This document shows, piece after piece, positions 3,961 to 48,188 of a DNA stretch of 64,000 nucleotides. Position numbers and translations under genes: made by a program. Positions within the stretch are counted from its first letter, which is position 1. Each line of letters starts with the position of its first letter. Origin of the DNA: an uncultured Phycisphaerae bacterium (GTDB taxonomy: Bacteria; Planctomycetota; Phycisphaerae; Phycisphaerales; UBA1924); contig CAMTWL010000031.1 of assembly GCA_947085435.1 (NCBI GenBank), forward strand, positions 76,278 to 140,277, in the 5' to 3' direction. The notes beneath the pieces were generated by a model. It was given only the letters and a program-made list of their open reading frames with translations. It had not been told where the DNA came from and ran no database searches.

Positions 3961-4040
3961 GCGGTGATGGGGTGATGGGGTGATGGGGTGATGGGGAATT
4001 CCATATCTCCCGATCACCCCATCATCCCATCATCCCATTC
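3961..4040. repeat. tandem octamer (GGGGTGAT)x4 followed by its imperfect inverted complement; G-quadruplex motif plus long hairpin
   Basis: gcggtgatggggtgatggggtgatggggtgatgggg ... cgatcaccccatcatcccatcatcccattc fills the whole 84-bp spacer between the PP2C stop (4039) and the ykgJ-like start (3954). Confidence 0.85.
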
Positions 4041-5406: not shown

Positions 5407-5922
5407 GTGATTTTCCGATGCCTTCTCTACAATCCCGGCGTGCCCACCGACCCGTCCGTCGTGTTGACTTCCGCCGAGCGTGCGCTGCTTGACGCCGCGT
5501 ATGAAGAGGCGCTCGCCGGGTTGAAGGAGGGCGGCATCCCGATCGGCTCCGCGCTGATGACCCCCGACGGCACGATCGTTGCACGCGGACACAACCTCCG
5601 CGTGCAGACGGGCGACACCACGGCTCATGCCGAGGTCGCCTGCATCCGCAACGCGGGAAGGCGGCGGGACTGGCACACGCTCACGCTGGCGTCGTCGCTC
5701 TCGCCTTGCATCATGTGTACGGGGGCTTCGCTGCTGCATCGCATCCCGCGCGTGATCGTCGGCGAGAACCGCACGTTCATGGGAGCGGAGGAGTTGTTCA
5801 CATCGCGCGGCGTGCGGCTGGCCGTGGTGCAGGACCCGCGGTGCATCGCGCTGATGGAGAAGTTCATCCGTGATCGACCGGACCTGTGGAACGAGGACAT
5901 CGGCGTGCCTCAGGCGGTTTGA
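5407..5922 (+). CDS. CMP/dCMP-type zinc nucleoside deaminase (cytosine/guanine/tRNA-adenosine deaminase family)
   Basis: HAEV...PCIMC zinc-binding motifs. C-terminus resembles Fcy1-type cytosine deaminases (DLWNEDIG). Start is uncertain: GTG at 5407, 5440 or 5461. Confidence 0.65.
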   Translation: MIFRCLLYNPGVPTDPSVVLTSAERALLDAAYEEALAGLKEGGIPIGSALMTPDGTIVARGHNLRVQTGDTTAHAEVACIRNAGRRRDWHTLTLASSLSPCIMCTGASLLHRIPRVIVGENRTFMGAEELFTSRGVRLAVVQDPRCIALMEKFIRDRPDLWNEDIGVPQAV

Positions 5923-5936
5923 CCACGGAGAGGCGA

Positions 5937-6102
5937 AGACAAAGACATTGAACACAGAGGAAGACAGAGGAAAACAGAGTAGGGAGGTCAGAAGAGCGAT
6001 TCACTGGGCTTGCATGTGGCACGTTGATCGCCCCCTGCGGTCGATCCTTCTTTTCAGTCTCTGTTTATCTTTGTTTTCCTCTGTGTTCAATGCCTTTTTC
6101 CT
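5937..6102. repeat. family-A long inverted repeat (CACAGAGG-type arms) forming an intergenic hairpin
   Basis: gacattgaacacagaggaagacagaggaaaacagag ... ctctgtttatctttgttttcctctgtgttcaatgcc, between the deaminase stop and the LOG start. Confidence 0.8.
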
Positions 6103-6134: not shown

Positions 6135-6776
6135 ATGTCGAGGCTGGCCAACGTCACCGTGTATTGCTCGTCGAGCGAGGTGCTGCACGCCGATCATTTC
6201 GAGTCGGCGCGGCGGTTCGGCGCGTTGCTCGCGGCGTCGGGGCGAGAGTTGGTCTTCGGCGGCGGGCGCGTGGGGCTGATGGGCGAGATGGCGCGGGCCG
6301 TGCGCGCGGCGGGCGGCCGGACGCTCGGGATCATCACGCATCGATTGAAGGAAGCGGAGCAACTCGACGAGAGCAACAGCGAGAACATCGTCGTCGCCAC
6401 CATGCGCGAGCGCAAGGCGCTGCTCGAAGCACGCGGCGATGCGATGGTCGTCCTGCCCGGCGGGCTGGGCACGCTCGAAGAGTTCTTCGAGATCCTCGTC
6501 GGGCGGCTGCTGGGCGAGCACGACAAGCCGATCGTGATCCTGAACCCGCGCGACCCCGACGGGCCGGTGAACGGGAATGCGGGCGGGTTCTACGATCCGC
6601 TCATCGAGATGATCGAGCACATGATCCGCAGCCGATTCGCACGCGAAGGCGTGCGGCAGTTGTTCGATGTTCGGCCGACGCCCGAGTCGGTGGTCGCACG
6701 GTTGGATGAGTTGGAGCGCGAGCCGAGCGTTCGCCCGCCGCTGGATTCGCTGGTGCCGGCGGGAGCCAAGCGATGA
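6135..6776 (+). CDS. LOG-family cytokinin riboside 5'-monophosphate phosphoribohydrolase (TIGR00730)
   Basis: 213 aa with GGGRVGLMGEMA and PGGLGTLEEFFE signature motifs. Confidence 0.85.
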   Translation: MSRLANVTVYCSSSEVLHADHFESARRFGALLAASGRELVFGGGRVGLMGEMARAVRAAGGRTLGIITHRLKEAEQLDESNSENIVVATMRERKALLEARGDAMVVLPGGLGTLEEFFEILVGRLLGEHDKPIVILNPRDPDGPVNGNAGGFYDPLIEMIEHMIRSRFAREGVRQLFDVRPTPESVVARLDELEREPSVRPPLDSLVPAGAKR

Positions 6777-7669
6777 CGGCCGCGCTTCGCACCGCGCCGG
6801 TCGAGTTCGCCGTGCTGCCGGACCCGCCCGCGCCGCCGACGCCGATGGGGCTGATCGCGGGGGCGGGGCGGCTGCCGATCATGGTTGCGCAGGGAATGCG
6901 AAGGTTGGGCCATCCGGTCTTTGCGGTGGGGCTTTCCGGGCAATACGACGCGGAACTCCCCGCGATGTGCGACCAGTTTGTTCAAGTGGGCGTGCTGCGG
7001 CCCGGCTCCTGGGGCCGTGCGTTGCGGCGGATGGGTGCGCGGCACGCGGTGATGGTCGGCCGCGTCGATAAGGCGCGGATGCTCTACTCATGGAGCGTGA
7101 TTCTGCGTAACATGCCGGACCTGCGAGCGTGGCGGATGTATTTCCGCCTTCGGCGGGATCGGCGGTCGCATGTGATCCTGCTGAGCCTCGCCGAGGGGCT
7201 TTCCCAGGACGGAGTGGAACTCATCGACTCAACCGCGCACATCGCCGACCATCTTGCGCACGCCGGTGTGATGACCAATCGACAGCCGAGCGCCGCGCAG
7301 CGCTCCTCCGTCGCGCACGGGTGGGAGGTTCTGCGCGAGATGCTCCGGCTCGACATCGGGCAAGCGATCGCGGTGCGCGACCAGGACGTGATCGCGGTCG
7401 AGGCGATCGAGGGAACGGATCGGATGATCGCGCGCAGCGGCGAACTGTGTCGCTCGGGCGGGTGGTGCCTTCTTAAGGCGGCGCGGGCGGGGCACGATCG
7501 GCGCAGCGACGTGCCGACGGTCGGCCCGGACACGATCCGCAACATGCATGCGGCGAAGGGCAGCGTCCTGGCCCTCGCGGCGGGGGACGTGATCATCGTG
7601 GACAAGGCCGAGACGCTGGCGCTCGCGGATCGGCTGGGGATCGCGGTGGTGGGCGTGCCTTCAGCGTAA
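6773..7669 (+). CDS. lpxI: UDP-2,3-diacylglucosamine hydrolase LpxI (DUF1009)
   Basis: 298 aa with the N-terminal MGLIAGAGRLP motif and the C-terminal LpxI fold. ATGA overlap with the LOG stop. Confidence 0.65.
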   Translation: MTAALRTAPVEFAVLPDPPAPPTPMGLIAGAGRLPIMVAQGMRRLGHPVFAVGLSGQYDAELPAMCDQFVQVGVLRPGSWGRALRRMGARHAVMVGRVDKARMLYSWSVILRNMPDLRAWRMYFRLRRDRRSHVILLSLAEGLSQDGVELIDSTAHIADHLAHAGVMTNRQPSAAQRSSVAHGWEVLREMLRLDIGQAIAVRDQDVIAVEAIEGTDRMIARSGELCRSGGWCLLKAARAGHDRRSDVPTVGPDTIRNMHAAKGSVLALAAGDVIIVDKAETLALADRLGIAVVGVPSA

Positions 7670-7880
7670 GACATTCACCGCGGAGGCGCGGAGGACGCAG
7701 AGAAGCGAAGATAGTCGCCACAGATAAGCCCAGATGACCCCAGATGAAGACTCCGACAATCAACAGAGAATCGAAGTGCCGATCGACAGCGCTTCTTTCC
7801 TATCTGGGACCATCTGGGTCATCTGTGGCTGGTTTTTTTCCTTGATTCCTCCGTGCCCCTCCGTGTCTCCGTGGTGAATG
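7670..7880. repeat. family-A nested inverted repeats (outer CATTCACCGCGGAGG... arms, inner CCACAGATAAGCCCAGATGA arms)
   Basis: The outer and inner arms pair across about 120 bp. The right outer arm overlaps the first codons of the tlyA-like ORF. Confidence 0.8.
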
Positions 7881-8476
7881 ATCCCAAAGCATGCCCGTTC
7901 GTCGGTCGGGGCGGACTCAAACTCCGCCACGCCCTCGACACATTTGCGTTCGACGTGACCGGCCTCGCCTGCGCCGACTTCGGCTGCAACGTCGGCGGGT
8001 TCACAGACTGTCTCTTGAAAGTGGGTGCGTCGAAGGTCTTCGCGCTCGATACCGGCTACGGCACGCTCGCCTGGACGCTGCGACAAGACCCGCGCGTCGT
8101 CGTGATGGAACGCACGAACGCGCTGCACGCGGACCCGCCGGCAGAACTCGTCGATCTGGTCGTGATCGACATGGCCTGGACGCCGCAGAGGCTGTGCGTC
8201 CCGGCGGCGCTGCGCTGGTTGAAACCCGGCGGCCGCATCATCGCGCTCATCAAGCCGCATTACGAGGCCACGCACGGGCCGGAGAAGGATCGGGTGCGCG
8301 ACGGCGTGCTGGACGAGGCGGATGCACAGATTGTGCTGGACCGCGTCGTCGCGGAGTTGCCCTCGCTTGGCGTGAAGGTGATGGGTGTGACGCGCTCGCC
8401 GGTGGTGGGCGGGGCGGGGAAGAAGAACGCGCGGGGGAATGTGGAGTTCCTTGCGTTGCTCGCCCGCGCCCGCTGA
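7853..8476 (+). CDS. tlyA: TlyA-family rRNA 2'-O-methyltransferase (FtsJ-like, lacking an S4 domain)
   Basis: GRGGLKLRHAL...DFGCNVGGFTDCLL SAM-binding motifs. The true start is probably GTG at 7871/7874, inside the repeat arm. Confidence 0.7.
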   Translation: MPLRVSVVNDPKACPFVGRGGLKLRHALDTFAFDVTGLACADFGCNVGGFTDCLLKVGASKVFALDTGYGTLAWTLRQDPRVVVMERTNALHADPPAELVDLVVIDMAWTPQRLCVPAALRWLKPGGRIIALIKPHYEATHGPEKDRVRDGVLDEADAQIVLDRVVAELPSLGVKVMGVTRSPVVGGAGKKNARGNVEFLALLARAR

Positions 8477-22530: not shown

Positions 22531-25158
<2,628 letters not shown>

Positions 25159-25165
25159 AGGCGAA

Positions 25166-25342
25166 TACATTCACCACAGAGACGCAGAGACACAGAGAAA
25201 GGCATGAGAACTGGGTTCAAGGCAGGAATACAGGCGCAGATGACACGGATGGATGCGGGGTAAGCGTTGTTCGCTTTTGTGCCCGTCCGCGCTTTCAGAC
25301 ACATTTGTTTTCTTCTCTGTGCCTCTGTGTCTCTGTGGTGAA
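25166..25342. repeat. family-A long inverted repeat between the convergent clpB and lipoprotein genes
   Basis: cattcaccacagagacgcagagacacagagaaagg ... ttcttctctgtgcctctgtgtctctgtggtgaaaactg. Confidence 0.85.
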
Positions 25343-25350
25343 AACTGATT

Positions 25351-25764
25351 TCACTGAGCCGGGCGAATCTGGAGGCGCCAATCGCGGGCGTTGGCATCCG
25401 GCGCGAAGCCCTCCATGAAAACCTGGCTGCGCGGCGGGAGTTTGACGAAGCGCCAGTCCGGGTCGGCGTCCAGCGGCGTGCCCTTCTCATCGAAGAAGAA
25501 GTAGCGGTACTGCACGTTCAGCACGTTCTTGTCCCACGTCGATCGCACGGCGGAGGTGATCGACATGGGCTTGGTGTCGGAGCCGGGGGTGACGTTCGCG
25601 CCGCTGACGACGAGGTGGGGCGAGAGGCCGCCGGCGGCTTCGACTTTGGGGTATTGGTCGGCGGGGAGCGGATCGACGCCCGCGGCGCCGGGGGAGCGGG
25701 TCCGGTCTTGCTGGCAGGCGGGAAGAGCGAGGGCGGCGAGGAGGATGAGTGTGGGGGTGCGCAT
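25351..25764 (-). CDS. small lipoprotein (YcfL/DUF1425-like)
   Basis: 137 aa. MRTPTLILLAALALPAC lipobox signal. Its size and context next to the LpoB-like gene suggest a YcfL-like protein. Confidence 0.45.
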   Translation of the reverse strand: MRTPTLILLAALALPACQQDRTRSPGAAGVDPLPADQYPKVEAAGGLSPHLVVSGANVTPGSDTKPMSITSAVRSTWDKNVLNVQYRYFFFDEKGTPLDADPDWRFVKLPPRSQVFMEGFAPDANARDWRLQIRPAQ

Positions 25765-25837
25765 GCGTGAGTGTCCCTATGTGAGTGAATGTGTTGATGC
25801 TTGGAAATGCCTTTCCCGGCGCGCCGGGATTCAGCCT

Positions 25838-25915
25838 GAAAGGCTGGTCGTTCGTAGCCGGGGGTTTAGCGAGTCTTCGAGCGTAACCCCCGGAAAGAGC
25901 CAAACCAACCCATCT
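25838..25915. repeat. family-B palindromic element copy
   Basis: ttcagcctgaaaggctggtcgttcgtagccgggggtttagcgagtcttcgagcgtaacccccggaaag. Confidence 0.75.
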
Positions 25916-25919
25916 TTTC

Positions 25920-27692
25920 CTATTTATTCCGCACGCTCCGGCCGCGCCTCTCTTCGATCGCGCGGATCGCGTCCGTGCTCTTCGGCACATACGGCGGATG
26001 CTCGCGACAGAAAAGCCTGACGAAACCTGTCGAGCCGGCTATGGGGGCTTCGAGCGAATCACCTCCGTCGAGAAGATGCCGCGGCGCGATAAGTTCTCGC
26101 GGGTCGGGGTTGAGGTTGATTCCTTCGGCTCGGTAAAGATTTTCGAGGTCGATAACACTGAAATCGAGGAGGTTTCCCGAGGCTTGATATCGACGGAGGA
26201 CTTCGAGCGAGGGTCTTTGCACGCAGCGCCCCCCGCCGCCGAGGATGTAGGGGAGGTCGTCGCCCGCGACGGCGCAATCGCAGGAGTCGTTCGAGTAGAG
26301 GACGCGGCCCGACTGACCCCATTGCGCGATCTCGCTGGACATCGGCATGCGGACGTAGTGGAGCGCGATGGAGTTTTGAGTCGGCGGATTGAGGCTGGGG
26401 AGCGCGAGGCGCGGGCCGCCGGCGATGGTGAGGGTGACGGTGGTGGTGGGCTGCGTGATGCTCGCGGCGGCGACGTAGACGCGATTCGGCAGGAGTTCGC
26501 AGTGGCGTGTGTCGGCGGCGGCGGTGAGTTTGCTGAAGAGGCCCGCGCCGATGAGCGAGAGGCCGACGATCTGGGCCGTTTGGTTGTCGGAGGATGCGGT
26601 GATGGCGCCGCCGAGGAGCATGGCGGTGCCGATGGAACTCTTGGCGGCGCGGAGGTCCTCGAAGTTGTTCCACATGTGATCCTGGGCGAGCGCGTTGAGG
26701 TCGGCGGCGACGGCGGAGGGGGAGGCGGAAGGCGGAGCCGAAGACACCGATTCCTTAAGGGAATCGGTGGCACGGGTTGGGGTGAATATTTCGAGGGTGA
26801 GTGGGCGTTGATTGTTTGCGAGGCGCGGGGCGAAGCGGGTGAGGGAGTTGTCGGGGCCGTAGCGGATCTTTTCGGGGCCGGGGCCGTAGTCGATGATGAA
26901 GACGGTGTTGGCCGAGTTGTTGAGGAGGGCGCTCGTGACCGGCGCGAGTGCTGGGATGAGCGTGTTGGCTTCGTTGAAGTTGTCTTGTGCTTCGTCGAGT
27001 CGTGCGGGGTCGCCTCCCGAGCGATGGAGCGCGAGGTTGGCGAGGCCGGACATGAAGTAGCCGAGGGCGAAGTTGGTTTTGGTGGGGGTGTAGCCCTTGT
27101 CGAGGTAGTCATCGAATGCGTCGTCGTTGTGCCGCGAACGCCCGACGGCGGTGCGGGCGATGTCTTCGGTGGTCTTGCGGCCGCCGCGCTCGTTCTCGCC
27201 GAAGTCTTTGAGGAGAAAGAGCGATGACTGTGCGGCGGCGCGTGCGTTGTCCCACTCGTTGAGGAGAGCCTTCTGCACCGCGATGTAGTGGAACATCATC
27301 GCCTGCTCGAAGGGCTCGCCTTTCCAGAAGATGACGTTGCCGTCGCCGAGGATCGCGGCGGCGATGGTCTTGTCGTCGTTGATGCCCTGGGTGCGGAGAA
27401 TCTCGAAGGTGCGGTTGATGATGGGTTCGGCGGCGGCGGGTCGGCCGTCGGCGAGGAGGGCGAGGCTGAGGCGCATGCGGTCGAGCATGTAGTCGCGGTT
27501 TGTGCGGTCCTCGGGGAGACGGGCGGCGATGCGCGAGGCGACGCGGGGGTATTCGCCGCGGTCGAAGAGGTCGCGGAGTGGGGTGTCGGTGGAGTGGGCG
27601 CAGGCTGTCAAGAGAAAGGCATTCACCGCAGAGACGCAGAGGACGCAGAGAAGGAATCGCTGGGATGAGTTGTTGTGAATCACTGCACCCAT
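25920..27692 (-). CDS. large lipoprotein of unknown function (COG3014-like neighbour of LpoB/YcfL)
   Basis: The ORF runs to 27707 (GTG). The likely ATG at 27692 gives MGAVIHNNSSQRFLLCVLCVSAVNAFLLTAC, a lipoprotein signal peptide whose coding sequence is a family-A repeat arm. Confidence 0.6.
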   Translation of the reverse strand: MGAVIHNNSSQRFLLCVLCVSAVNAFLLTACAHSTDTPLRDLFDRGEYPRVASRIAARLPEDRTNRDYMLDRMRLSLALLADGRPAAAEPIINRTFEILRTQGINDDKTIAAAILGDGNVIFWKGEPFEQAMMFHYIAVQKALLNEWDNARAAAQSSLFLLKDFGENERGGRKTTEDIARTAVGRSRHNDDAFDDYLDKGYTPTKTNFALGYFMSGLANLALHRSGGDPARLDEAQDNFNEANTLIPALAPVTSALLNNSANTVFIIDYGPGPEKIRYGPDNSLTRFAPRLANNQRPLTLEIFTPTRATDSLKESVSSAPPSASPSAVAADLNALAQDHMWNNFEDLRAAKSSIGTAMLLGGAITASSDNQTAQIVGLSLIGAGLFSKLTAAADTRHCELLPNRVYVAAASITQPTTTVTLTIAGGPRLALPSLNPPTQNSIALHYVRMPMSSEIAQWGQSGRVLYSNDSCDCAVAGDDLPYILGGGGRCVQRPSLEVLRRYQASGNLLDFSVIDLENLYRAEGINLNPDPRELIAPRHLLDGGDSLEAPIAGSTGFVRLFCREHPPYVPKSTDAIRAIEERRGRSVRNK

Positions 27693-27757
27693 GTCTTTAT
27701 CCGTCACAAGTCTCCCGTCTTCCTCTGCGTTCTCTGCGTCTCTGCGGTAAATATCTT
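27615..27757. repeat. family-A inverted repeat; left arm inside the lipoprotein coding sequence, right arm in its 5' UTR
   Basis: aaaggcattcaccgcagagacgcagaggacgcagagaagg (27615-27654) ... tcttcctctgcgttctctgcgtctctgcggtaaat (27716-27757). Confidence 0.85.
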
Positions 27758-27761
27758 CTCT

Positions 27762-28343
27762 TCAGTTGTAGGAACGCCCCGCGGCGGTGCGTTTCAGGAG
27801 GTATTCGCCGGTCCAGACGGTTTCACCGGATTCAAGAGCGGTGATGGAGTAGTGGGCGGCGTAGAGGTCGGTGCGATCGAGGGCGAACGAGCGGGTGATG
27901 TTGCGGAAAACCGCGGCGAGGACGTGGGTGGGCTTTCGTTCCTCGCCGATCGTGCGCTCGAAGCCGATGGCTTCCTTGAGGTTTTCCAGGCGTTCAGCCG
28001 GAACGATGAACCGGATGCGTCGCTCCCCGGCGAGGTCGCGGAGGTGGAACGAGTGGGTGATGCGGTCGATGAGGTACCACCGCTCGCCTTTGGTCATGAG
28101 GTCGCTCGTCAGATTCGTCGGCTCCCGCGAGGTGAGGAGAATCTCGGGAGATTCCGGGGTGCGCCCACTCAGGAAGTCCGACTCGCGCAGCGACGCGGCG
28201 ATCTCAACGACGATCGACTCGAAGTCGAGCGTCTGCAGTTGCGTGCTCCGCGAAGGATGGTTGCAGCCCGTCAGAAAAAAGGCATTCACCACGGAGACAC
28301 CGAGGCACAGAGAAGAGAGAAAGGTGTGGGTGGCGTGGGACAT
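27762..28343 (-). CDS. LpoB-like lipoprotein (candidate penicillin-binding-protein activator)
   Basis: 193 aa. MSHATHTFLSSLCLGVSVVNAFFLTGC lipobox signal. The C-terminal YSITALESGETVWTGEY resembles LpoB's LMLVQTGEIIWSGKG. The first 27 codons are a family-A repeat arm (28262-28343). Confidence 0.5.
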   Translation of the reverse strand: MSHATHTFLSSLCLGVSVVNAFFLTGCNHPSRSTQLQTLDFESIVVEIAASLRESDFLSGRTPESPEILLTSREPTNLTSDLMTKGERWYLIDRITHSFHLRDLAGERRIRFIVPAERLENLKEAIGFERTIGEERKPTHVLAAVFRNITRSFALDRTDLYAAHYSITALESGETVWTGEYLLKRTAAGRSYN

Positions 28344-28389
28344 GACGGGGTGGGTGATGAGATGCGGTGGCGGGGCGGATCGGTTGCGT

Positions 28390-28560
28390 CACGCGGAGCG
28401 TGGCACCCCTTGTATGTTCTTCGGGGTTCGGAAGAGGGTATAGGGGTATAGGGGGGGTTGGTTCCGGGGGTTACGCTTGGTTGCCGCGGCGACCGCTCAC
28501 CCCCGGCTACTGACTGCCAGCTCGTACACGGCGAGTCGAGGCGACCCTCCGGGCTTGAAA
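28390..28560. repeat. family-B element copy with a GTCGCCGCGGCGAC core
   Basis: ccccttgtatgttcttcggggttcggaagagggta...ggttccgggggttacgcttggttgccgcggcgaccgctcacccccggctactgactgccagc. Confidence 0.7.
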
Positions 28561-28612
28561 CGGGGGAAGTTCAACACCGCAACACATCACCTGTTTTGTC
28601 TCACGCGATGAC

Positions 28613-30412
28613 TCATTTTTCTTCGCTCTTCCTGTTCCAGACTGCGCCGCACGCCAGGATCGCCATCCCGGCAAAGCAGGTCCAGCCTACTCCGTTGCCG
28701 AACCTGGCATAGATCGTCATTCGGCGGGGTTGAACGTCGAAATCCGCGATGAGGACGCCGGGTTGCCTTGCCGGCAGGCTGGAAATCACCCGGCCGTCGG
28801 CGTCGATGGCGGCGCTGAGGCCGGTGTTGACGGCCCGGAGCATGGGGGTGCCGAGTTCCAGCGCCCGCCAGCGGCATTGGAGGACGAGGTTGTCGCGCCC
28901 GGCGTCGTACCACGCGAACCAGCCGTCGTTGGAGAGGTTGATGAAGAGGTCGGCCCGGCGCTCGCCGTTATTTTGCGCGAGGCGGCGCATGTGGCGGGAA
29001 TAGGTTGACTCGAAGCAGATGGGGGTGGCGATGCGGACGGTCTTTGGTGGGCCGGTCGCCGCGGCGACCGGGTCTGATTGGATTTCAAGGACCGTCGGAT
29101 TTTTTCCCGCTTCAAGATCGAACGTCAATCCGCGTCCGCCGAGCGCGAGGAGCTGCCTCTCCAGCCAATCCCAGTTGGAGATATAGGGCATGACCTCGCC
29201 GAAGGGCATGAGTTGCATCTTGTCGTAGCGTGTCTCTTCGACGACGCCGTTGCGGACCATGAAGGCGCTGTTGTAGAGGGCGTCCTGCTTGATGTTCACC
29301 TTGCCGTCCGGCGCAACGTCGATCCTTAGCCCCTCGGCGGCCGTCGCGCCGACGAGCATGGGGATGCCGATCTCTTTCTGGAGTTCGAGGATCGCGTCGT
29401 AGAAGACGGTGGTTGGGATGTTGCCGGGGTATGCGAGGCTGGCGGCGCGTTCGGCGGCGACGGCGCTGGGGTTGAGGGCGTAGCCGGGGAACATGGTTTC
29501 GGGCCAGACGATGAGGGACGGCTTCGGCGCTTGCTCGGCGGCCTCGCGGGTGAGGTTGCAGAAGTCGCGGAAGTCTTCGAGGCGCTGGTCGATTGTTTGG
29601 CTCGTGCGGTTGTCTTGAGATACGTTGGTTTGGATTGCGGTGATGCGGAGCGCGGGTGCATGGGCGACGGTGGGTGAAGTGCCGCGTGGGAAGAGGAACG
29701 CAAAGAGTGCGGTGAGGCACGCCGTCGCATATAGGATTCGGCGCACCGGTGCGATTGTCCGTGGCTGCGGAGCACCCCTTCGGGGTGCTGAAGAGGTTTG
29801 GGGGGACAGGTTTCCGGGGGTTACGCTCGAAGACTCGCTAGACCCCCGGCTACTGTAGATCAGCCCTTCGGGCTGAAGAAGGCGATGCGGGATGGAGGCC
29901 GTCACCACGGCGTTGACCAGAAGCCCAACGCCATAGATGCCAACAACCGGCGCGGCCCACGCGATCATCCGATCGATCAGCGGATGCGCGATCAGATACT
30001 GCGCATACCCATCCCACACCACTTCGCCGCGCAGCACTTCGAGTCCCGTCCAAAGAACCGGCGCGGCGAGGTACAGCGGCAGCCTCGGCGATCGGCGGTG
30101 GACGCGCGCCAGCATCCACACGAAGAGGCCGGGGTACAGCGCGAGGTAGAGGGAGAGCGGGACGAACGCGGCTTCGGTCATGGCCCAGGTGAACTGGTGG
30201 TGATACGCCCACATGGGGACGGTGCCGAGGGCCGCGCCGAGGGCGGCGCGGGCCGGTCGGTCAGCCCGGACGGCGGCGAGGATCAGCGGGATCGGCGCGA
30301 GGAGTGCGAGGAACCACCATCCGAAGGGTGGGAAGGCGAGGCCGAAGAGGACACCGTGGATGAGTCCGAGAAGCAAGCCGGCGCGGAGGGGATGGCGTTT
30401 GGTATCCGTCAC
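28613..30412 (-). CDS. lnt: apolipoprotein N-acyltransferase Lnt, carrying an in-frame repeat-element insertion
   Basis: 599 aa. N-terminal polytopic membrane domain, CN-hydrolase domain (E..K..C triad region: PETMFPGY...KMQLMPFGE...ATPICFES) and a final TM. A roughly 38-aa linker (LQPEGLIYSSRGSSESSSVTPGNLSPQTSSAPRRGAPQ) is encoded by the family-B element. Confidence 0.85.
   Translation of the reverse strand: MTDTKRHPLRAGLLLGLIHGVLFGLAFPPFGWWFLALLAPIPLILAAVRADRPARAALGAALGTVPMWAYHHQFTWAMTEAAFVPLSLYLALYPGLFVWMLARVHRRSPRLPLYLAAPVLWTGLEVLRGEVVWDGYAQYLIAHPLIDRMIAWAAPVVGIYGVGLLVNAVVTASIPHRLLQPEGLIYSSRGSSESSSVTPGNLSPQTSSAPRRGAPQPRTIAPVRRILYATACLTALFAFLFPRGTSPTVAHAPALRITAIQTNVSQDNRTSQTIDQRLEDFRDFCNLTREAAEQAPKPSLIVWPETMFPGYALNPSAVAAERAASLAYPGNIPTTVFYDAILELQKEIGIPMLVGATAAEGLRIDVAPDGKVNIKQDALYNSAFMVRNGVVEETRYDKMQLMPFGEVMPYISNWDWLERQLLALGGRGLTFDLEAGKNPTVLEIQSDPVAAATGPPKTVRIATPICFESTYSRHMRRLAQNNGERRADLFINLSNDGWFAWYDAGRDNLVLQCRWRALELGTPMLRAVNTGLSAAIDADGRVISSLPARQPGVLIADFDVQPRRMTIYARFGNGVGWTCFAGMAILACGAVWNRKSEEK
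29770..29885. mobile_element. family-B MITE-like element inserted in-frame within lnt
   Basis: ccttcggggtgctgaagaggtttggggggacaggtttccgggggttacgctcgaagactcgctagacccccggctactgtagatcagcccttcgggctgaag is a near-identical copy of the intergenic elements. It lies between the Lnt membrane and nitrilase domains and has no stop codon. Confidence 0.75.
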
Positions 30413-33955: not shown

Positions 33956-34030
33956 GCATTCACCACGGAGTCGCGGAGGACGCCGAGTAGAACACCGACA
34001 GCCACAGATGACCCAGATAAGCCCAGATAG
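33956..34030. repeat. family-A arm (outer plus inner arm) whose partner at 34330-34360 is separated by a MITE insertion
   Basis: cattcaccacggagtcgcggaggacgccgag...ccacagatgacccagataagcccagatagcgg, with partner ctcatctgggtccatctgggtcatctgtggc at 34330-34360. Confidence 0.7.
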
Positions 34031-34056
34031 CGGAGCAGGGCAACCAAGGGATTTCG

Positions 34057-34294
34057 TATCTCTTCAGCGGAATGCAACGGCTTCCAAGCCTTCCCCAAAC
34101 GGAAGCGTGTTTCTTGTTCCGATCGCGTGGCGCCCCTTCGGGGTTCGGAAGAGGGTTAGTGGGGTTGCTTTCCGGGGGTGTCGAATCCCGGCGCGCCGGG
34201 ACACCCCCGGCTACTCTAGACCAGCCCTTCGGGCTGAAGATCAATTCATCTCAACACAATACGAACCTCCGCTTGCAAACGGCTGAAGAGTCAC
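34057..34294. mobile_element. full-length MITE (about 238 bp): TIRs GTATCTCTTCAGCGG / CGGCTGAAGAGTCAC enclosing the family-B core; 7/8 TSD
   Basis: Flanks gggatttc | ... | ggcatttc. The internal sequence is colinear with the copies at 45058 and 54811. Confidence 0.75.
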
Positions 34295-34411
34295 GGCATT
34301 TCAAACCCCGAATCTGGATCACTCCGGTCTCATCTGGGTCCATCTGGGTCATCTGTGGCATCTCTTCCAACTCGGTCGCCTCCGTGGCGAAAGGGAAGGT
34401 ATTCTTGGCGG

Positions 34412-43606: not shown

Positions 43607-43734
43607 GTTGACGTGGCACGGGCTTTCCAGCCCGTGTCTTCGGTGGTACGGGCTTTCTCGGAGAGTCGCCGCGGCGACCGTGACGCGGGGGACACGGGCT
43701 AGAAAGCCCGTGCCACATTCAAACTGAGACACCA
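43607..43734. repeat. family-C element flanked by 14-bp direct repeats CACAACTTTGAGTG
   Basis: Direct repeats at 43593-43606 and 43735-43748. The internal sequence is gtggcacgggctttccagcccgtg...gagagtcgccgcggcgaccg...gtgccacattcaaactgagacac. Confidence 0.8.
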
Positions 43735-46231: not shown

Positions 46232-46239
46232 TCTGAGGT

Positions 46240-46310
46240 ATTCACCACGGAGTCAAAGATCCGCCGCGGCGGGGCACGGAGAGCACGGAGTAATACAGAT
46301 CACACTTCGA
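46240..46310. repeat. family-A arm (solo)
   Basis: ggtattcaccacggagtcaaagatccgccgcggcggggcacggagagcacggag. Confidence 0.6.
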
Positions 46311-48131: not shown

Positions 48132-48188
48132 GGTGGAGCAGGCATCTCGAAGAGTCGCCGCGGAGACTCTTCGAGATGCCTGCACCAC
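48132..48188. repeat. near-perfect 57-bp palindrome (family-C core)
   Basis: ggtggagcaggcatctcgaagagtcgccgcggagactcttcgagatgcctgcaccac. Confidence 0.85.

Follow-up and report, generated by a model that had tools for sequence, protein, structure and literature searches.

Can a palindromic DNA repeat provide the coding sequence of a protein export signal, and if so, is this what the repeat is for? The question was raised by a 64,000-nt stretch from an uncultured Phycisphaerae bacterium (contig CAMTWL010000031.1, positions 76,278 to 140,277), referred to here as the window, in which arms of a multicopy inverted repeat, family-A, lie at the starts of two adjacent minus-strand genes, one for a 193-aa LpoB-like lipoprotein and the other for a 595-aa lipoprotein. 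A sequence-only reading of this stretch had proposed that a mobile palindromic element was recruited there as a portable lipoprotein export signal, possibly with a built-in translational-control hairpin. Our analysis indicates that the repeat arm is the coding sequence of the hydrophobic core of the predicted signal peptide in both lipoproteins.

The inverted repeat between the two genes consisted of two 40-nt arms (27616-27655 and 27718-27757, minus strand), which were 85% complementary and separated by a 62-nt loop (27656-27717). In order to score arms in the window and in orthologous loci, we built a hidden Markov model (HMM) from the window's own family-A arms. The downstream (3′) arm, matched by the HMM at 27612-27655 (E 2.2e-9), lay within the open reading frame (ORF) of 595 codons and encodes FLLCVLCVSAVNAF, the h-region of the lipoprotein, followed by the lipobox L-T-A-C (codons TTG ACA GCC TGC, 27600-27611, with the Cys codon at 27600-27602). 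These lipobox codons fell beyond the repeat consensus proper, though the extended stem reached them. The upstream (5′) arm (HMM E 8e-8) was non-coding and filled the intercistronic spacer, starting 4 nt past the stop codon (27762-27764) of the 193-aa gene. Both candidate starts of the 595-aa gene, ATG (27690-27692, the start of the 590-aa NCBI database copy P0012) and GTG (27705-27707), were located in the loop, which also encodes the n-region (…SSQR). At the LpoB-like gene, a solo arm (28277-28316, minus strand; HMM E 2.6e-9) encodes SSLCLGVSVVNAF, the h-region of the signal peptide; the N-terminus of the 193-aa ORF read FLSSLCLGVSVVNAFF and continued into L-T-G-C (CTG ACG GGC TGC, 28263-28274, with the Cys codon at 28263-28265). 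The arrangement described from the letters alone was therefore recovered at both genes, except that the partner arm placed in the 5′ untranslated region of each was found for the 595-aa gene only: none was recognisable in the 28343-28613 interval upstream of the 193-aa gene. When a 20-mer from the arm was used as a query, the window contained 5 matches with up to 3 mismatches, compared to 0.00 expected from shuffled sequences. The downstream-oriented arm offered one fully hydrophobic frame, an unbroken Leu/Cys/Val/Ser/Ala stretch, whereas the second carried a TGA codon and the third read SLRLCGE(C).

To be a signal peptide, the arm-encoded segment has to be translated. Both N-termini (FLLCVLCVSAVNAFL-LTAC and FLSSLCLGVSVVNAFF-LTGC) passed a lipobox test in which the pattern [LVI][ASTVI][GAS]C was applied after an uncharged hydrophobic h-region, and the 10 residues preceding each lipobox included no D, E, R or K. 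Residue C31 of the 595-aa family was invariant in an alignment of 44 homologues (42-78% identity), and C27 was invariant in all 11 sequences of the LpoB-like family. A strict h-region-plus-lipobox test was passed by 98 out of 120 homologues of the 595-aa protein, and most of those that failed still had the Cys, their start having been called too far downstream. Nearly all full-length homologues presented an ordinary, unrelated signal peptide, then the Cys and, immediately after it, the conserved mature start (C-x-S-x-P-D-x-x-L-R…G-E-Y). Since the Cys is invariant and the conserved mature region directly follows it, translation of the 595-aa gene must start upstream of 27602, where only the arm and the loop are available as coding sequence. 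The invariant C27 likewise places the start of the LpoB-like gene upstream of its arm. No in-frame start codon was present between the arm and the Cys, and a start further downstream, such as M-70 of the 595-aa protein, was excluded by the same alignment. Translation would thus begin at ATG 27692 or at GTG 27707, and both proteins would be exported and lipidated. The lnt gene (TIGR00546, E 1e-60), located directly upstream, provided a supporting context for lipoprotein processing. Direct searches for similar N-termini gave nothing: phmmer with the 32-aa N-terminus against 1.84 billion representative sequences returned 0 matches at E ≤0.001, the query being too short and hydrophobic, and a word-indexed search with the 42-aa arm-coded N-terminus yielded no candidates.

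Comparison with orthologous loci indicated that neither co-option is recent. In the LpoB-like family, 8 out of the 10 other members (46-65% identity) had arm-like N-termini of the LCxSxV type, for example …LCLCVSVVN…, …LCASVVNAL… and …ALCVSAVN…, while those of P0002 and P0011 were not arm-like. Locus L001, whose 595-aa homologue was 71% identical, had an arm at the start of each of the two genes (1722-1761 and 2403-2442; E 4e-8 for both); these coding arms were intact, whereas only remnants of the upstream non-coding partner arms were left. Locus L003 (63% identical), in which these two gene starts carried arms as well, had arm matches at 199-230, 751-786 and 878-900. The closest relative, L002 (81%), presented an ordinary-looking signal peptide with no arm-HMM match, and its spacer aligned to that of the window as an arm relic in which insertions of 10 nt and 5 nt jointly restore the frame; this alignment is suggestive of a former arm. 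Within the 595-aa family, arm-like signal peptides were confined to a subclade of more than 60% identity, which argues that, in one lineage, the arm took the place of an ordinary signal peptide that had been there before. Both co-options appear to be old, since they are common to orthologues down to about 50-63% identity.

The explanation that we favour is as follows. A palindrome resembling repetitive extragenic palindromic sequences (REPs) and miniature inverted-repeat transposable elements (MITEs) would separate the LpoB-like gene from the gene of the 595-aa lipoprotein, and its downstream arm would have been recruited to form the hydrophobic core of a type II (lipoprotein) signal peptide. 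From a start in the loop, translation would pass through the arm and reach the host-derived lipobox LTAC, and the solo arm would serve the LpoB-like gene likewise. Co-opted arms would then be preserved by their coding function, and their non-coding partners would decay. Taken as a whole, that is, with the arm as lipoprotein signal core, the hairpin as incidental and the element as mainly a repeat of gene 3′ ends, we consider this explanation likely. It draws on arm identity, frame, the conserved Cys and the orthologous arms, as observed above, and on the hairpin decay and stop-codon placement observed below.

Several observations weigh against it. Lipoprotein n-regions are positively charged according to the PROSITE PS51257 rule, with K or R near the N-terminus, and by this rule the n-regions of both lipoproteins were weak. 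The charge in the 595-aa protein came from R12 if translation starts at the ATG or from K4 if it starts at the GTG, in which case the Cys becomes residue 36. The 193-aa protein had neither K or R before the h-region nor an upstream in-frame start, although its homologues do carry an Arg there. A single ancestral insertion and recurrent insertion or gene conversion at that position could not be distinguished, because the loops could not be aligned among the window, L001 and L003 and the closest relative, L002, had no clear arm. No transposase or other mobilising function was identified. Finally, the arm-coded h-region was more conserved than the mature protein, both between the LpoB-like proteins of the window and L001 (10/13 residues versus 52%) and between two Terriglobia M1-peptidase-like proteins described below (10/11 versus 57%). 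The usual behaviour of signal peptides is the opposite, the h-region being less conserved than the mature protein. This conservation hints at an additional constraint at the DNA or RNA level, which an incidental hairpin does not explain.

It is possible, although we regard it as doubtful, that family-A is an undescribed cross-phylum palindrome whose arm sequence is kept almost unchanged by a factor acting in trans or by a DNA or RNA function, and that it recurrently seeds or replaces signal peptides, the co-opted arms remaining constrained or in concerted evolution. Either of these, a DNA-level constraint or concerted evolution with the copies elsewhere in the genome, would account for an h-region that is better conserved than the mature proteins. 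Two candidate lines of evidence for such a constraint were rejected. Identity at third codon positions in the arms (6/10 to 8/10) was not significantly above the background of 45-72% set by the GC content of these positions, and nucleotide identity in the h-region (72%, compared to 67% in the mature coding sequence) was unremarkable. As third-position identity was not significantly raised and the numbers were too small, we make no claim of DNA-level constraint.

The rival to our favoured explanation that survived best concerns the hairpin. The transcript of 27590-27775 was predicted to fold into a single long stem that spans the interval between the upstream stop codon and the lipobox codons (-78.3 kcal/mol, z-score -6.2), and 0 out of 200 shuffles of this interval folded equally well, so the fold anticipated from the letters, with the start codon in the loop and the signal-peptide codons in the stem, was reproduced by RNA folding. 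Such a structure could be a functional riboregulator, that is, a selected translational or mRNA-stability control of the 595-aa gene. In one variant, ribosomes terminating at the stop codon of the LpoB-like gene, 4 nt from the stem, would open it, so that translation of the two genes would be coupled. Besides the stability of the stem, the co-variation of the arms throughout the element family and the unusual conservation of the h-region would fit this idea, and REPs near stop codons are thought to act post-transcriptionally (PMC3733652). However, orthologues that keep both the gene and the signal peptide had a weak stem or none in the equivalent 186-nt spacer (z -2.65 in L003, -1.2 in L001 and +1.8 in L002). 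In addition, the start codons sit in a loop of 62 nt, roomy enough for 30S binding without stem melting, and the LpoB-like gene of the window manages with a solo arm that forms no hairpin (z -1.8). Because the stem decays in orthologues, and because the coding arms of L001 are intact while their partners have decayed, selection appears to have preserved the peptide, whereas the stem was not kept. These comparisons support neither a conserved translational switch nor the built-in control hairpin of the sequence-only reading, and we judge riboregulation of the 595-aa gene to be unlikely. As part of the explanation favoured above, and with the same degree of confidence, the strong hairpin found here would be a by-product of the element structure. 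A local effect in the genome of the window, for instance one coupled to translation termination in the preceding ORF, is possible.

In order to establish what family-A elements are in general, we examined the copies in the window and beyond. The HMM identified 12 family-A arms in the window, whose consensus, read towards the outer end, was TTCTCTGYG(T)YCTCYGYGTCTCYGYGGTGAATGYCTTT. Elements had TTCACC…GGTGAA termini, arms made of CRGAGRC-type units of 8-9 nt and a variable loop of 60-300 nt. The three intergenic hairpins listed previously were confirmed. One (25166-25342) took up the spacer of a convergent gene pair, ClpB and DUF1425, another (7670-7880) lay directly after a stop codon (7667-7669), and a diverged one (5938-6100) was placed 15 nt past a stop codon (5920-5922), with the next gene starting at 6135. 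Two further copies were added, a composite element at 33956-34393, with outer arms degenerate on one side, nested inner repeats and a GTAG-type REP in the loop, and a solo minus-strand arm at 46235-46259, right at the stop codon of a plus-strand GAPDH-like gene. Inner inverted repeats of CCACAGATGACCCAGATGG-type units were nested inside some family-A elements (7700-7830 and 33990-34360 in the window; 2600-2680 in L118), showing that composite or nested palindromes exist. The right arm of the 7670-7880 element overlapped the start of a tlyA-like ORF (7853-8476) in the same frame, as had been noted; since the FtsJ domain of its product begins at residue 16, the arm merely overlaps the start codon and is not a signal peptide. 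The ClpB/DUF1425 spacer measured 192 nt and was filled by the element in the window, compared to 5 nt and empty in L003. This presence/absence polymorphism fits the proposed mobility. A comparison of the filled site with the empty one revealed no recognisable target-site duplication.

We then scanned the arm pattern CTCYGYGYCTCYGYGGTGAA in one genome per species (loci L004-L123) and in metagenomes (L124-L243). In the genome scan, the pattern was present in at least 120 loci from at least 8 bacterial phyla. Among the listed loci, the majority were from Acidobacteriota, and the others from Planctomycetota, Chloroflexota, Armatimonadota, Verrucomicrobiota, Pseudomonadota, Desulfobacterota, Cyanobacteria, Bacteroidota and one archaeal metagenome-assembled genome (MAG). 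Isolated single matches may be due to chance, which by our estimate would account for a few tens over the whole collection, whereas inverted pairs of arms cannot be chance. Both scans together recovered 53 inverted pairs, and the paired copies listed first had sharp ends at TTCACC…GGTGAA and unrelated loops. In these 53 elements, which were selected on their TTCACC…GGTGAA termini, the two arms of the same element matched at 18.0 out of 20 positions, compared to 15.3±0.3 between elements (the maximum of 2000 shuffles was 16.5), indicating that palindromy is maintained element by element. Element ends were located within 30 nt downstream of the stop codon of an ORF of at least 100 codons in 42 out of 106 cases, versus 6.9±2.6 under random placement. 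Family-A also presented MITE-like features, namely terminal inverted repeats, small size, no coding capacity and presence/absence polymorphism. Three arm pairs 1.1-1.4 kb apart, the only ones with a spacing of more than 300 nt, enclosed ordinary genes (a CPBP-like protease and a dehydrogenase beta-subunit) and no transposase, and no autonomous parent copy was seen among ~240 loci. These three widely spaced pairs showed no association with REP-associated tyrosine transposases (RAYTs), for which no genome-wide search was made. Rfam gave no family-A match at the gathering threshold and, at E ≤1, only spurious microRNA-hairpin matches far below it; literature searches with 12- and 15-mers of the arm returned unrelated primers or nothing, and the arm was absent from the supplements of PMC3733652. 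Family-A thus appears to be an undescribed and very widespread palindromic element. That it is in general a hairpin repeat of gene 3′ ends, and not a signal-peptide cassette, belongs to the explanation that we favour and is held as firmly as the rest of it.

The frequency of co-option was addressed by a frame census. Among 161 arms from many phyla, the downstream ORFs of at least 50 codons used the hydrophobic frame in 63 cases, the GGT-GAA control frame in 56 and the TGA frame in 0. A second sample of 122 pattern matches, which contains chance matches such as the GyrB motif GASVVNALS, gave 39 versus 26 ORFs in the hydrophobic and control frames, respectively. Most ORFs in the hydrophobic frame had their real start after the arm, as in the case of EF-Ts in L070 and L098. 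Across the ~280 arms there was no reading-frame enrichment. Co-option was rare, affecting about 1-2% of arms (about 5 convincing cases), yet recurrent across phyla. The convincing cases comprised the two genes of the window with their orthologues and the M1-peptidase-like pair of Terriglobia (L043:2424-4211 and L170:2099-3853, both on the minus strand). These two orthologues were 56% identical, started with …VLCASVVNAF(A/S)|LDREAFTFT and lacked a partner arm upstream; judged by their sequences, they are an independent co-option in another phylum. An 810-codon ORF in L119 is probably a further one.

These figures bear on the proposal of a portable export signal in its strongest form, in which the repeat would exist or spread as a dedicated secretion-signal module and in-frame arms would be its main functional state. 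The fully hydrophobic frame, to which a 3′ extension (AATGCCTTTCTCTT) adds NAFLL in this lineage, the use of the arm by two adjacent genes and the independent cases in Terriglobia and L119 would speak for such a cassette. However, the census showed neither frame enrichment nor more than a handful of convincing cases, the second frame of the arm carries a TGA, and most elements were found 3′ of genes, including between convergent genes where there is no downstream gene to serve. We therefore consider a dedicated cassette very improbable, and export signalling did not hold as a general role of the repeat. Poorer still is the view that the arms are non-coding and that the signal peptides arise from ORF over-extension into a stop-free repeat: such over-extension is common elsewhere (EF-Ts in L070 and L098, the tlyA-like ORF) and REPs located at the 5′ ends of ORFs are in many cases not codogenic (PMC3733652), but an invariant Cys with the conserved mature start (C-x-x-x-D-x-x-L-R…RGEY) directly after it, more than 100 homologues with ordinary signal peptides and the lack of a start between arm and Cys leave this artefact effectively refuted by sequence comparison.

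The co-opted arms belong to a minus-strand cluster (25351-30412) formed by lnt (28613-30412), the LpoB-like gene (27762-28343), the 595-aa ORF (25920-27707 from the GTG) and a last gene for a DUF1425/YcfL-like lipoprotein (25351-25764). Read from the ATG (25920-27692), the 595-aa ORF is a conserved gene for a TPR-like (tetratricopeptide-repeat-like) lipoprotein of 590 aa. Its 261 homologues were widespread in Phycisphaerae and other Planctomycetota, and the family has no Pfam or NCBIfam assignment despite its hundreds of members. The Pfam LpoB profile PF13036 was matched by 6 out of the 11 members of the 193-aa family (E up to 1; best 4.3e-7) but not by the window's own protein, and a PDB profile search with this family returned no relevant structure. 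The LpoB-like, 595-aa and YcfL/DUF1425 genes were syntenic in L001 and L003, with another gene replacing lnt upstream in L001. Scans for sigma-70 promoters and intrinsic terminators between 25000 and 28800 found none.

Other repeats were also present in the window. A second family consisted of a GTAG-tagged REP-like palindrome, GTAGCCGGGGGT…AACCCCCGG, often flanked by CTTCAGCCCGAAGGGCTG and CCTCTTCCGAACCCCGAAGG, with 14 matches at up to 2 mismatches versus 2.15 expected. Copies lay near 1148, 25854, 28498, 34202, 45188 and 54891, and a composite copy at 29790-29880 was in frame within the lnt ORF, where it encodes …QPEGLIYSSRGSSESSSVTPGNLSP… between the LNT_N and CN_hydrolase domains. The lnt/LpoB-like spacer was bracketed by a 17-nt inverted repeat (28353-28369 and 28575-28591, 88% complementary, 205 nt apart), which begins just past the stop codon of lnt, ends just before the ATG of the LpoB-like gene and encloses a GTAG REP. 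Unrelated palindromes included one based on (GGGGTGAT)n (3965-4038), an inverted repeat with 39-nt arms (43613-43716) and a perfect-spacing 28-nt palindrome (48133-48188).

The comparative evidence from this locus that conserved genes can receive a functioning protein-sorting signal from a selfish or structural DNA repeat appears to be unusually clean, as the need for a signal peptide is fixed by the invariant lipobox Cys while the core of the peptide copies a genome-wide repeat. For annotation, it implies that ORFs entering arms in these phyla usually extend too far, since no stop codon interrupts the three frames of the upstream-oriented arm or two of the three frames of the downstream-oriented one, and that occasionally an arm is truly coding. 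The three open frames of the upstream-oriented arm read FTAETQR, SPQRRR and IHRRDAE. ORFs running through arms, such as 24513-25490 (minus strand) and 27675-28451 (plus strand) in the window and others in many of the loci, gave rise to spurious peptides like HRDTEAQRR and SLRLCGE, which probably enter MAG annotations as junk hypothetical proteins. The element itself merits its own description, being conserved across phyla, adjacent to stop codons and co-varying in its arms, with no sequence match in Rfam or the literature.

When compared to known systems, the predicted signal peptides resemble those of type II (Lgt/LspA/Lnt) lipoproteins in their n-region, hydrophobic h-region and L-T-[AG]-C lipobox with conserved Cys, and lnt belongs to the cluster; they differ in that the h-region is a copy of a DNA repeat present throughout the genome and, between orthologues, varies less than the mature protein does. 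As a DNA element, family-A recalls the REPs and the bacterial interspersed mosaic elements (BIMEs) built from them, whose GTAG and CGTC superfamilies are high-copy imperfect palindromes located less than 20-30 nt past stop codons, at convergent or unidirectional genes and occasionally within genes (Di Nocera et al. 2013, PMC3733652). It is likewise multicopy, imperfectly palindromic and placed just downstream of ORFs. However, its termini are TTCACC/GGTGAA and not GTAG or CGTC tags, and its 30-40-nt arms of tandem 8-9-nt units with long variable loops are more similar to terminal inverted repeats or foldback elements; a genuine GTAG-type REP family coexists with it in the same window.

The closest precedents are repeats that became coding sequence. 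Rickettsia palindromic elements (RPEs) are inserted in frame and translated, and N-terminal RPE-1 copies are expressed (Ogata et al. 2000; PMC2229807, PMC3733652). RPEs mostly add surface segments inside proteins, are ascribed no export role and are restricted to Rickettsia. Family-A shares with them the in-frame translation of a palindromic repeat, a functional resemblance only, since the sequences are unrelated, the host is a Phycisphaerae-like planctomycete and no Rfam or literature match was found. In Yersinia, intragenic copies of the 168-bp MITE YPAL/RU-2 and of ERIC/IRU are described as fused to ORFs such as YPO1552, with a predicted signal peptide or transmembrane segment partly encoded by the repeat (Delihas 2007; PMC2229807). 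As with YPAL, we found a palindromic intergenic repeat with an open hydrophobic frame, fused in frame at a gene start and kept in this position between related species. The repeat family and the phylum are different, and whereas the Yersinia products are hypothetical proteins with a signal peptide that is only predicted, the genes described here belong to conserved lipoprotein families in which the invariant lipobox Cys and more than 100 homologues indicate that a signal peptide is required. Moreover, co-option extends here to three protein families in two phyla and is conserved down to about 50-63% identity. Altogether, the view that family-A is a new example of the known route from selfish repeat to coding sequence, preceded by the YPAL MITE of Yersinia and the RPEs of Rickettsia, is well supported.

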